Shown here: positions 44,838 to 48,103 of the stretch, one piece after another
How positions within the stretch are numbered: position 1 is the first letter of the stretch
Layout of the letters: each line of letters begins with the position of its first letter
NCBI GenBank assembly: GCA_038247415.1
Contig: JBBRUX010000002.1
Location: 64,001 to 128,000 of the forward strand
Reading direction: 5' to 3'
Source: Chitinivibrionales bacterium
Lineage (GTDB): Bacteria; Fibrobacterota; Chitinivibrionia; Chitinivibrionales; WJKA01
DNA length: 64,000 nucleotides
Position numbers and translations under genes: made by a program
Notes under the pieces: generated by a model
Database searches by the model: none
Seen by the model: only the letters and a program-made list of their open reading frames with translations
What the model was told of the DNA's origin: nothing

Positions 44838-45272
44838 CTAAATATCATAGGTAGAGGACACAGCATGCGTATCCATTTCTACGGCATCTGCAAGAGTAAT
44901 TGATGAAAGCAGCTTTGTTTCAGTATCATGAAGTTTTTTCCAAATTTGTTGAGCTGCGCAGCCATGAATCCTTGTACACGTCTCGGGTTTTTCGATGCAA
45001 TCTACAGGAGCAATCGAACCTTCGAGCGCGTTGACGATTTCGAGAATGGTAATAGTACTAGCTGATCTGGCCAGAATAAATCCACCATGGGCGCCCCGAG
45101 AGGTGTTTATGATACCAGCGTTTTTGAGAGCAATAAGAATATTTTCAAGATAGCCGTGCGAGATATTTTGGGCAAGCGCAATATCTTTGCGTTTTACAGC
45201 TAAACTTGAATGACGTTTTCCTATTTCGATTAATGCGCGCAAGCCGTAACGGCATTTAGTTGAAAGTTTCAT
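44838..45272 (-). CDS. Rrf2 family transcriptional regulator (IscR/CymR-like, three Cys)
   Basis: MKLSTKCRYGLRAL, YLENIL..L, SRGAHGGF.L and C-x6-C-x5-C. Confidence 0.93.
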   Translation of the reverse strand: MKLSTKCRYGLRALIEIGKRHSSLAVKRKDIALAQNISHGYLENILIALKNAGIINTSRGAHGGFILARSASTITILEIVNALEGSIAPVDCIEKPETCTRIHGCAAQQIWKKLHDTETKLLSSITLADAVEMDTHAVSSTYDI

Positions 45273-45430
45273 AAGAGGTTCACACTTTAATAATTGTTTA
45301 GATAACCAGTTTTGTTAATAAACTCACTAAAGATAAAATATATTAACGCGCACAGGGCCTTAAGGCCAGATTAGTTATTGTAAGGGCGATGGGGTTTTGT
45401 TTTGATCAATTAACAAAAAAAGAATAAAAA

Positions 45431-45641
45431 TCTGAGCATTCCGACTTCGCCGGCGCCCCCACCCCTTCGGGCGCCCAAAGGAAGTACCCTTGGGGTATTT
45501 TCCGATGCGTCTTCGTTAATGGGCTCTTGCTTCGCAAGCCGGCCTTTCATGCCATGCGGCACTACGTGCCTGAGGCATTCAAGACTGAAAGCTTTACTCC
45601 GTTTTGCTTTCACCCCTCTCTGCGTCGGAGAGGGGTGAGGC
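45431..45641. repeat. GC-rich cluster of short hairpins (unclassified)
   Basis: Stems at 45452-45475, 45474-45494, 45526-45538, 45558-45570 and an 11-bp perfect stem at 45610-45638. Confidence 0.55.
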
Positions 45642-45671
45642 TTAAATGTCAATAAATCCCATAGTTCTTCT

Positions 45672-45845
45672 TCAGGGTAGCCCCGTTGCCTTTTGCGACA
45701 GGCAGGACTGGAGTGTGATGGATGAACAGCGGGAATCCATTAGTCTGGAGAGACCTCGGTGCAACGCACCGCAGGGTTTGACAGACCGGCTCACGAAGTG
45801 AGAGCACGTAAGGGGGGCAAACGGTGAAACCGGGTCGCCCGGATC
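45672..45845 (+). ncRNA. Candidate structured ncRNA of about 175 nt (unclassified)
   Basis: The 5' and 3' ends pair as a long stem with several G-U pairs; three internal hairpins; tandem G-A pairs. Confidence 0.45.
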
Positions 45846-46098
45846 AAAATCTACATTTTAAATGCAAATACAACGACTTATTCTAAAGGCTACTAGTAGA
45901 AAATAATGCCACACTAAAGATATCTACAGGTTATAGCCCTTTTGGGGTAAGTATCTCGCCATAATCGTTGGTGATTTTCTCGGCACGTAGTATTTTTGCA
46001 AAGGTCTTTTTGTTTGATCAAGACAGCTTAAAGCCTTTGGATTTTCAAAATTCAAAATCCTAGAGAAACCATCCAAACGAACCAAGGAGTGCATACCG

Positions 46099-46887
46099 GT
46101 GAATATCGTAGTCTGCATTAAGCAAGTCCCCGGCTCTACACAGGTAAAAATTAATCCCGAAACGGGAACACTTATCCGGGATAGTGTTGAAGCGATTGTT
46201 AATCCATTTGATGAGTATGCAATCGAGGAAGCTTTGCGCATTAAGGAAATTAATGGCGCAACCGTAAAGGTTATAACGATGGGGCCACCCCAAGCTACCG
46301 ATGCATTACGAAGTGCAATTGCCATGGGTGCCGACGAAGCCTTTTTGGTATCGGATCGGGCATTTGCAGGTTCCGATACATGGGCGACATCGTATACATT
46401 ATCTCGCGGCATAAAGTCTCTTGGTGTCGTGGATCTTATTATTTGCGGAAAGCAAGCAATCGATGGCGATACCGCACAAGTAGGTCCAGGTGTTGCCGAA
46501 ATGCTTAATATTCCCTACGTTGCGTGGGTTCGCAAAATAGAAGAAATTACAGAAAACCGCATTCGTGTTCAACGGCTTATGGAAGATGGCTACGATGTGG
46601 TAGAAATGCCATTGCCCGGGCTTATTACGGTTATCAAAGAAATTAATCAACCACGCCTTGCTTCACTTAAAGGTAAAATGCGTGCGAAGAAGATAGAAAT
46701 TCCAACGCTTACTGCCGAAATGCTTGGGGTAGATCTTAACAAAACAGGATTAAAGGGTAGCCCAACACAAGTGTTTCGGTCTTTTGTTCCACAAAAAAGA
46801 GGCGGTGGAGAAAAAATAAGTGGCGATACTGCAACGCTTGTTGAAAAGATAACATCAACTATCCTTGAAATGAAGGTAATTAAATAA
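46099..46887 (+). CDS. etfB: Electron transfer flavoprotein beta subunit
   Basis: VCIKQVP, NPFDEYAIE, DRAFAGSDTWAT and GKQAIDGDTAQVG. Confidence 0.96.
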   Translation: MNIVVCIKQVPGSTQVKINPETGTLIRDSVEAIVNPFDEYAIEEALRIKEINGATVKVITMGPPQATDALRSAIAMGADEAFLVSDRAFAGSDTWATSYTLSRGIKSLGVVDLIICGKQAIDGDTAQVGPGVAEMLNIPYVAWVRKIEEITENRIRVQRLMEDGYDVVEMPLPGLITVIKEINQPRLASLKGKMRAKKIEIPTLTAEMLGVDLNKTGLKGSPTQVFRSFVPQKRGGGEKISGDTATLVEKITSTILEMKVIK

Positions 46888-46900
46888 AGAGGGGATCGTA

Positions 46901-48103
46901 ATGGGAATTAGCGTAAGTCTAGAAAAATGCATTGGATGTGGTTTGTGTGTGCGCTCCTGTGCTCCAAAAGCAATTTCACTGGTTGATAAAAAAGCAGTTA
47001 TAGATCTTTCGGCATGTACCATGTGTGGAGCATGCGTTGACGCCTGCAAACGTTACGAAGCAATAACCATCGCTAAAGAAAATGTAGGTGGTTGTGATGT
47101 TTCGTTGTATGCGAATGTCGCAGTATTTATCGAACAGGGCGACGGCCATATCCATGGTGTATCATACGAAGTTTTGGGCGAAGGCCGTAAGCTCGCTACT
47201 GCATTACAAGAAAAGCTCATTGCAGTGGTGCTAGGGCACGATATGAAAGCAACCGCAGAAGAGCTTATTAAATATGGTGCCGACAAGGTCGTGTATTTTG
47301 ATGGCCCCGATTGCAAAAGCTTTCGCGACGATACCTATGCGGCGCTTGTTACCCGATTTATCGAAGAAGAAAAACCCGCTATTGTTCTGGCTGGTGGGAC
47401 AGCTATAGGACGTTCTTTTCTGCCCAAAGTTGCTGCCCGAGTATATGGTGGCTTAACAGCCGACTGCACCACGCTTGAAGTTGACCCAGAGAAAAAGTTG
47501 CTCTTGGGGACACGTCCGGCTTTTGGTGGAAACCTCATGGCTACCATTATTGCGCCACATCATCGGCCGCAGCTTGCTACTGTGCGACACAAAGTAATGA
47601 AGCCAGCTGTTTTTGATGCTTCCCGAACTGGCGAAATGGTTATTCATACTGTTGCAAACGGAGCGGTGCAAGAGCGCACAACCATTGTGGATATTGTTAA
47701 GGAAATAGAATCTACAATAAATATAGCCGAGGCCGATATTGTTGTTGCCGGTGGACGAGGTATGCAAAGCGCAGAGAATATGAAGCTATTGCGCGACCTT
47801 GCAGAATCTTTGGGTGGCGCAGTTGGTGCAAGTAGAGCTGCCGTAGATAATGGCTGGATAGCATATAGCCATCAGGTTGGACAAACAGGAAAAACGGTGT
47901 GCCCAAAGCTCTATATTGCGTGTGGTATTTCCGGGTCTGTTCAACATATGGCCGGAATGTCTTCATCAGAGTTTATTATTGCCATCAATTCCGATTCTAA
48001 TGCAGATATTTTCCAAATTGCAAATCTTGGGATTGTAGGAAACGCGCTCGAAATAGTTCCTGCGCTTACTGCAGCGTTTAAGAAAGCTCGATCGGTAGCG
48101 TAA
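46901..48103 (+). CDS. etfA: Electron transfer flavoprotein alpha subunit with an N-terminal 2x[4Fe-4S] ferredoxin
   Basis: CIGCGLC...C and CTMCGAC...C; GLTADCT, RPAFGGN and QVGQTGKTV. Confidence 0.95.
   Translation: MGISVSLEKCIGCGLCVRSCAPKAISLVDKKAVIDLSACTMCGACVDACKRYEAITIAKENVGGCDVSLYANVAVFIEQGDGHIHGVSYEVLGEGRKLATALQEKLIAVVLGHDMKATAEELIKYGADKVVYFDGPDCKSFRDDTYAALVTRFIEEEKPAIVLAGGTAIGRSFLPKVAARVYGGLTADCTTLEVDPEKKLLLGTRPAFGGNLMATIIAPHHRPQLATVRHKVMKPAVFDASRTGEMVIHTVANGAVQERTTIVDIVKEIESTINIAEADIVVAGGRGMQSAENMKLLRDLAESLGGAVGASRAAVDNGWIAYSHQVGQTGKTVCPKLYIACGISGSVQHMAGMSSSEFIIAINSDSNADIFQIANLGIVGNALEIVPALTAAFKKARSVA

Follow-up and report, generated by a model that had tools for sequence, protein, structure and literature searches.

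We describe an uncatalogued family of structured interspersed repeats, multicopy and about 155 nt long, that is specific to one order of Fibrobacterota, the Chitinivibrionales. A full-length member occupies positions 45688..45845 on the plus strand of the window, a stretch of 64,000 nt from a Chitinivibrionales bacterium (assembly GCA_038247415.1, contig JBBRUX010000002.1, positions 64,001 to 128,000), and lies in the intergenic region between an Rrf2 gene and an operon for electron transfer flavoprotein (ETF). Our preferred reading, to which we give a probability of about one half, is that the family is a selfish, non-autonomous repeat that depends on its single-stranded fold to propagate and that works as RNA, not as DNA at the replication fork. 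An initial annotation of the same region had proposed a structured RNA, undescribed and particular to this locus, with a possible role in regulating etfB; its observation was partly right and its interpretation mostly wrong.

The copies share an eight-helix fold, in all cases on one strand. In the window copy, P1 (GCGAC, 45695-45699, with GUCGC, 45834-45838), a conserved helix of 5 bp, closes the molecule, and P2 (GGC, 45701-45703, with GCA, 45817-45819, including one G-A mismatch in this copy) and P4 (GUGU, 45713-45716, with GCAC, 45804-45807) lead via purine-rich internal loops to a three-way junction of P5, P6 and P7. P5 is a hairpin (GAUGGA, 45717-45722, with UCCAUU, 45736-45741) whose loop has the conserved form AACnGnGnGA. 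P6 is a long arm with internal loops, built from GUCUG (45743-45747) and CAGAC (45782-45786) and from an inner stem with its cap, GGUGC-AAC-GCACC (45758-45762 with 45766-45770), and P7 is the hairpin CUCAC-GAA-GUGAG (45790-45794 with 45798-45802). A variable hairpin, P8 (CGG-UGAAA-CCG, 45822-45824 with 45830-45832), which reaches up to 12 bp in other genomes, sits before the invariant 3' CGCCCA; the 3' strand of P1 runs here into a conserved CCA/CCG tail (45834..45841), for which CGCCCA is the family consensus. Three of these elements had been recognized by the initial annotation, which gave a hairpin ATGGAT/ATCCAT, present as GATGGA/TCCATT and corresponding to P5, a long arm at 45743-45786, present as GTCTG/CAGAC with the cap GGTGC-AAC-GCACC at 45758-45770 and corresponding to P6, and CTCAC-GAA-GTGAG at 45790-45802, corresponding to P7. 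All three are conserved and covary.

Evidence for this fold comes from covariation among the copies. The covariance model of the family, R1, comprises 158 positions and 41 pairs, and we tested the 41-pair structure on 23 full copies from the window's own genome, with column shuffles (n = 500) and with pairing partners slid by 1-3 columns for comparison. By this measure, 91.5% of cells were paired, compared with 78.2% in the shuffles and 37.8-42.2% in the slid alignments; both sides had changed in 20 of the 41 pairs (142 cells), and the covariation score was reached by 0 of 500 shuffles. Subfamilies within the genome diverge at about 30% of positions, with the helices kept via compensatory changes. 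Among 34 copies from other genomes, in an alignment fitted to the model and hence favouring the structure, 94.8% of cells were paired (35.8-45.4% when slid) and 37 of the 41 pairs had changed on both sides. Covariation among homologues, which the initial annotation had suggested as a check, was thus found both within the genome and across genomes.

The individual helices show how the pairing has been kept. In P1, both sides had changed in 3 of 5 pairs within the genome and in 4 of 5 across genomes, with 91.3% and 99.4% of cells paired, respectively, and its variants are GCGAC/GUCGC, GCAUU/AAUGC, GCGUA/UACGC, GCACG/CGUGC, GCGCA/UGCGC and GCGCC/GGCGC. GC, CG and UA pair types are swapped among copies in P2 in both alignments. 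Column pair 28/123 of P4 is GC in 10 own-genome copies and UA in 6, and column pair 109/117 of P7 is CG in 9, UA in 8 and GC in 5. Both-side changes were found in 4 of 6 pairs of P5 within the genome (6 of 6 across genomes) and in 7 of 14 pairs of P6. P8 varies in length and sequence between subfamilies. In the CGCCCA motif, the three C are invariant in the 23 own-genome copies, and the motif is retained in most copies from other genomes. Another genome of the order, G061, holds 18 near-identical copies in which only 19 of 1078 cells are broken and the differences are concentrated in stems and compensatory; within P8 of these copies, Watson-Crick exchanges on both sides occur in 7 of 8 variable stem pairs.

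The irregular outer stem of about 20 bp (45675-45697 with 45807-45840) reported by the initial annotation was not conserved. Drawn by the minimum-free-energy fold of the window copy as 21 pairs, it was paired in 54.2% of cells of the 23 copies, compared with 54.0% in shuffles and 34-45% in slid alignments, and is a feature of the window copy only; the conserved closing helix is 5 bp long. The 6S-like rod shape, which rested on this outer stem, is likewise unsupported. For the same annotation's extent of 45672-45845, the end at 45845 stands and the start does not, as the conserved core begins at 45688. The single-sequence fold energy of the window copy is only modestly unusual against 200 shuffles per strand, at -65 kcal/mol and z = -1.96 for the plus strand (7 of 200 shuffles as good) and z = -1.67 for the minus strand (13 of 200).

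The window copy is an ordinary full-length member of a large set within its own genome (G000; 3.84 Mb in 99 contigs, 96% complete), where it corresponds to C2:109688-109845 and matches R1 end to end (model positions 1-158, 156.6 bits; nhmmer E = 2.9e-39). By BLASTN, 45660-45850 gave 38 matches in this genome, including 12 other places at E <= 1.4e-25 with 77-87% identity, several of them exactly at contig ends. An nhmmer profile built from 19 copies gave 60 matches at a threshold of E <= 0.01, 55 of them with E <= 1.4e-10; many dispersed copies had been named by the initial annotation itself as a refutation, and its proposal of an RNA particular to the locus no longer holds. Many contigs end within copies, and three DNA runs each show contigs broken at the repeat. 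In run X1, the summed contig depth was 36-526 over 45448-45825 compared with 14.8 in the flanks, which indicates that the copy multiplicity lies in the data and is not an assembly artefact. The copies are intergenic by a crude gene call based on open reading frames (ORFs), with a few running up to about 130 nt into the beginnings of long ORFs, perhaps because start codons were over-extended. The genes beside them are functionally unrelated and face either way: of 54 copies, 21 point the same way as their upstream gene and 18 the other way, the corresponding counts for the downstream gene are 26 and 24, and the remainder border contig ends. At least 10 copies are truncated or mosaic, an inverted copy in the window among them, and some mosaics carry alternative 3' modules.

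Outside this genome, the family is patchy and confined to the order. Of 81 genomes of the order searched with R1, 23 have the family, representing 12 of 33 genera, and the 6 other genomes searched of the window's own family gave 0 copies. Copy numbers reach at least 36 in two genomes and 32 in two more, and within a single genus (g22) they are 0, 3, 5, 7, 9, at least 36 and at least 36; genomes with few copies hold intact ones (G017 with 1, G023 with 2). In a sample of 151 Fibrobacterota genomes, all 20 positives belong to the same order, and the family was absent from 79 of 79 genomes of other orders of the phylum as searched with R1. Detection across genomes required the covariance model, BLASTN of the element against 60 relatives never having gone below E = 2e-4. 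When one genome per species was scanned with a pattern, 61 stretches came up, of which 3 were confirmed by the model, all in records titled uncultured Fibrobacterota bacterium, with the remainder due to chance. Using a stricter pattern, 3 of 3 stretches in metagenome contigs were confirmed, intergenic where the context was visible, and among viral contigs 0 of 9 pattern stretches were confirmed. In agreement with the initial annotation, which had recognized no known family, covariance-model searches against Rfam 15, with 6S, glycine, c-di-GMP, FMN, SAM, SRP, HEARO and IS605-orfB among its families, gave 0 gathering-level matches across the whole window, 3 chance-level matches at E <= 10 on 45250-46110 with none on the element, and, for 12 loci from other genomes, a single match (E = 0.59) that lies off the element. 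A literature search at abstract level found no description of the family.

G-U pairs exceed A-C pairs (G-U if the opposite strand were the one folded), with 59 against 17 among the own-genome copies and 43 against 14 across genomes, and hence the plus strand of the element is the folded one. This excess and the covarying helices uphold the earlier description of a structured plus-strand element. The orientation of the element does not follow the replication strand: its strand and the sign of local GC skew match for 19 of 49 copies, or for 16 of 39 once copies are restricted to an absolute skew above 0.02. RNA is favoured by four observations taken together: the surplus of G-U pairs, the covariation of long-range helices, the conservation of the junctions and an orientation independent of the replication strand. 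From these comparisons, the fold probably acts as RNA and not as single-stranded DNA at replication forks.

As a selfish element, the repeat would expand and disappear within lineages, with propagation limited to copies whose fold is intact, in which case the folded single strand would be the substrate of the copying machinery. Its RNA could be made from neighbouring promoters or from a weak promoter of its own, and the mobilizing enzyme would be encoded elsewhere rather than beside the element. Comparisons of syntenic sites gave one case, between G064 and G052, in which one genome has the element and its congener about 29 unrelated bases, the flanks being too diverged for a clean junction; the sites in G063 and G051 that correspond to G061 are occupied by other repeat modules. 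In one genome (G049, L069:1130-2033), a 354-nt unit with one element is repeated 2.6 times in tandem at 98% identity, a recent triplication. The 18 copies of G061 are near-identical over a sharply bounded core, TTGACGTTGCG...CGCCCAGAAG.

Several observations speak against a selfish RNA repeat of this kind. Because G-T wobbles form in single-stranded DNA too, the G-U excess alone is no proof of RNA, and a scan for promoters and terminators found nothing adjacent to the window copy. For 27 copies from other genomes, inspection by eye of 80 nt of upstream sequence revealed no shared promoter, only a T-rich run. The filled and empty sites above, with their diverged flanks or other repeats, define no target-site duplication, and terminal inverted repeats were not found at the element's ends (TTGACnTTGCG... 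and ...CGCCCAGAAG), where only the 5-bp P1 is complementary. The search for a partner protein was likewise negative. All-against-all BLASTP of the ORFs at 83 loci gave no recurrent neighbour, the only shared ORFs being spurious ones across the element itself. Pfam annotation of 38 ORFs found metabolic and housekeeping genes and no transposase among the 37 at contig-end copies, the 38th being a Y1_Tnp ORF deliberately added from a copy-free locus. RVT_1 was found in 43 of 81 genomes of the order and is missing in 11 of the 22 other genomes with the element, and Y1_Tnp is absent from three genomes that bear it: G023, G034 (32 copies scored) and G037. Finally, both the single intact copy of G017 and the independent compensatory changes among near-identical copies would fit an RNA gene selected by the host equally well.

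That last possibility, a multicopy non-coding RNA family used by the host, in which each copy is kept for a cellular function of the folded RNA, is one we regard as a serious but less probable account. Such an RNA might act in cis, on stability, processing or insulation, or in trans, as a scaffold, a sponge or a catalytic RNA. The nearly invariant junction and loop nucleotides combined with covarying stems are as in functional RNAs, and the intact copies in low-copy genomes (1 in G017, 2 in G023), the many independent compensatory changes, the G-U excess pointing to one strand and the missing transposase partner are all in keeping with host use. The distribution is harder to reconcile with it, since 58 of the 81 genomes of the order lack the repeat, among them all 6 others of the window's own family, and since copy number ranges from 0 to at least 36 within one genus. 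Orientation and neighbourhood are random, truncated and mosaic copies are common, and no conserved promoter or terminator was seen, either at the window copy or, by eye, upstream of copies in other genomes.

By analogy with the once-orphan multicopy motif HEARO, we speculate that the repeat could instead be the RNA component of an unrecognized system, either a ribozyme-like self-processing RNA or a scaffold for a trans-encoded protein that copies or moves it, a view we hold to be unlikely. If it were true, the invariant junction nucleotides, the always-paired but hypervariable P8 and the invariant 3' CGCCCA would be its functional parts; the last of these immediately follows the closing helix and calls to mind an acceptor-like CCA end. 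A number of specific signatures were considered and set aside, in each case because the motif was not conserved across genomes as judged by eye: a CsrA-type GGA sponge, an ssoA CS-6-like TAGCGA, the d(GCGAAGC) DNA mini-hairpin, glycine-riboswitch-like vocabulary, a hammerhead-like CUGA core, and a Shine-Dalgarno sequence with a small ORF.

An element of single-stranded DNA moved by a Y1/HUH transposase, in the manner of repetitive extragenic palindromic (REP) sequences and bacterial interspersed mosaic elements (BIMEs) with their REP-associated tyrosine transposase (RAYT), or of short IS200/IS605 derivatives, appears improbable to us. It would have the hairpins recognized on one DNA strand at replication forks. 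The fold is indeed strand-specific and built of hairpins, copies cluster with short GC-rich hairpin modules and in inverted pairs as in BIMEs, and the window's genome has one Y1_Tnp gene (C19:51888-52208, in a 359-aa ORF). This gene, however, adjoins no copy; 65 of the order's 81 genomes have Y1_Tnp regardless of whether the element is present, and G034, G037 and G023, which have the element, lack it. A Y1/HUH mechanism is expected to leave a strong replication-strand orientation bias, as in IS608 and ISDra2, whereas the repeat shows none relative to GC skew (16 of 39). Moreover, the long-range covariation of P1, P2 and P4 and the conserved junctions exceed the simple hairpins that such enzymes read.

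We consider it very improbable that the family is a relic or orphan of a guide-type RNA, such as an IS110 bridge RNA or a TnpB or IscB omega RNA. Guide RNAs of this kind have a precedent in HEARO, a multicopy motif later shown to be the omega RNA of IscB, and the repeat similarly combines a fold, many copies and a length of about 150-180 nt, and its sharply conserved 3' end gives way at once to unique sequence. Against this, the TnpB zinc-ribbon family PF07282 gave 0 matches in the window's genome under conditions in which control genomes respond, and the IS110 family PF01548 gave only a sub-threshold match there, inside an unrelated 1121-aa ORF. For IscB, the 83 loci showed no recurrent neighbouring ORF, with no search made using IscB's own family. 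The internal loops of the repeat are conserved rather than variable, and it has no match in Rfam, a collection that includes the HEARO and IS605-orfB motifs.

The remaining proposal, the initial annotation's locus-specific small RNA or riboswitch-like leader of etfB/etfA that senses redox, flavin or Fe-S status, is scarcely credible: the element has a complex fold and lies 254 nt upstream of etfB on the same strand, but its 60 copies stand by unrelated genes in both orientations, it matches no riboswitch family, and its 0 copies in 6 other genomes of the same family mean that no conserved link to etfB can exist.

The surroundings of the window copy are themselves repetitive. The two flanking features, identified by Pfam, are the Rrf2 gene (44838-45272, minus strand) and the ETF operon, in which ETF beta (46099-46887) is on the same strand as the copy and is followed by ETF alpha (46901-48103). 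The position given by the initial annotation, between rrf2 and etfB and ending about 250 nt before the latter, is correct, with 254 nt separating the copy's end from the ETF-beta start at 46099. A second, partial family copy (45519..45616, minus strand; model positions 27-124) lies inverted and head-to-head 70 nt upstream of the full copy (nhmmer E = 5.6e-25, C2:109616-109519). It carries an alternative 3' module (45420..45518, minus strand) that is repeated elsewhere in the genome; 45424-45618 matches C10, C16, C68, C24, C3 and others at 83-90% identity, and the module at about 45420-45518 occurs at 80-90% identity on at least 10 other contigs, sometimes without the core. Between the two copies, a short GC-rich hairpin module, CACCCCUCUC-7 nt-GAGAGGGGUG (45611..45637, read from the sequence and given no strand), is found, and the entire segment 45394-45858 is repeated sequence in this genome. 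We infer that nothing specific ties the window copy to rrf2 or etfB apart from its place in the intergenic region between them. The ETF alpha protein has a ferredoxin domain fused N-terminally (a 2x[4Fe-4S] domain; Pfam Fer4 families with ETF and ETF_alpha). Fusions of this type are associated with FixB-like or bifurcating ETFs.

Elsewhere, too, short repeat modules surround the core, and neither their order nor their orientation is fixed. When four loci of 4.3 kb were compared, a unit of 190-270 nt emerged within a mosaic of separate short modules, and the intergenic regions that hold copies are mosaics, as with BIMEs. Hairpins of the form CCCCTCTCC...GGAGAGGGG, similar to 45611-45637, occur in the 5' flanks of the copies on C4, C90 and C63, and GC-rich hairpins (CCCCTCTCC-loop-GGAGAGGGG; ACACCC-loop-GGGTGT) recur by copies on C4, C90, C63 and C13. 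These modules look like a separate REP-like repeat family, with which the single Y1_Tnp gene (359 aa, C19:51888-52208) might belong. In other head-to-head pairs of the window's genome, such as C65:16250-16655, C24:27135-27525 and C28:49514-49939, the leaders abut, and a stretch of about 60 nt lying 5' of the core contains 4-5 AATCA(T/A)G motifs at a spacing of about 10 nt, an arrangement that looks, at the sequence level, like a common control region or a group of sites for protein binding.

The copies of G061 (L145-L162) show further detail at their borders. The core start TTGACGTTG is echoed by TTGACTTTG directly after the 3' CGCCCAGAAG, with a TTTGA-rich tail next; this direct repeat, TTGACTTTG, was not seen in the window's genome and may be either a target duplication or part of the unit. 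In most of these copies, a second conserved module, CCCCTCCCGCAACGCCCTC...GGTAGAAAACAC, lies 100-200 nt upstream of the core. The same module, CCCCTCCCGCAACGCCCTC...GGTAGAAAACAC, stands alone and reversed at the syntenic site of G063 and G051 (L179, L180), and G051 has no copy of the structured core. Among ORFs near copies in the window's genome, one beside a contig-end copy matches Zeta_toxin (C55:22869-23687; L170:3173-4003, minus strand) and one on C81 has a Bro-N domain (L167:815-1393). From this Pfam annotation, both may be mobile or phage-related neighbours.

These results remove a false lead at the locus, in that the intergenic RNA is not a regulator of ETF, redox or Fe-S status, and replace it with a new family that has very strong covariation support, is limited to one uncultured order, numbers up to about 60 copies in a genome and has no evident protein partner. 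The family fragments short-read assemblies of its host genomes and could serve as a lineage marker, and the covariance model R1 could be used to annotate it.

Compared with known systems, the repeat differs from cis-acting leaders such as riboswitches in that its downstream genes are co-oriented in 26 cases and opposite in 24 and its neighbours are of unrelated function. Unlike the omega RNAs of TnpB and IscB, it has neither an adjoining tnpB (0 matches to PF07282) nor a recurrent neighbour, the IscB family itself not having been searched. Unlike IS110 bridge RNAs, it adjoins no IS110 recombinase, and its internal loops are conserved where bridge RNAs have variable target and donor loops. With REP sequences and BIMEs it shares strand-specific hairpins, inverted head-to-head pairs and intergenic mosaics with other short hairpin modules. 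A REP unit, however, is a palindrome of 20-40 nt, whereas the core of the repeat is about 155 nt with eight helices; no RAYT-like gene flanked by copies was found, three genomes have the repeat without a Y1_Tnp match, and replication-strand bias is lacking.

Small bacterial repeats with predicted RNA structure include ERIC, Correia/NEMIS, RUP, BOX and, in the Bacillus cereus group, bcr1. Small interspersed repeats and miniature inverted-repeat transposable elements (MITEs) of bacteria are covered in a review (PMC3184786). Like MITEs, the repeat is 100-200 nt long and non-coding, has tens of dispersed intergenic copies with a patchy distribution among relatives, includes truncated and mosaic copies, and breaks short-read assemblies. 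It differs from them in having no terminal inverted repeats of about 10 bp or more beyond the 5-bp P1, no related autonomous insertion sequence among those looked for and, at diverged or occupied sites, no defined target duplication, and in being multi-branched with invariant junctions rather than a foldback of two ends.

Chloroflexi-1, Dictyoglomi-1 and HEARO are clade-specific multicopy RNA motifs, HEARO having been an orphan of this kind before it was shown to be the guide (omega) RNA of IscB. Comparative-genomics reports on multicopy structured RNAs that are specific to a species or clade include PMC2864571 and PMC5737381. Like such motifs, the repeat is intergenic, taxonomically restricted and present many times in a genome, has a covarying fold and lacks a known partner or function. 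It is set apart from them by matching no Rfam 15 family, by its own eight-helix closed fold with a three-way junction, and by its occurrence in an uncultured order of Fibrobacterota. Orphan multicopy folds have previously proved to be parts of new mobile-element or RNA-guided systems.

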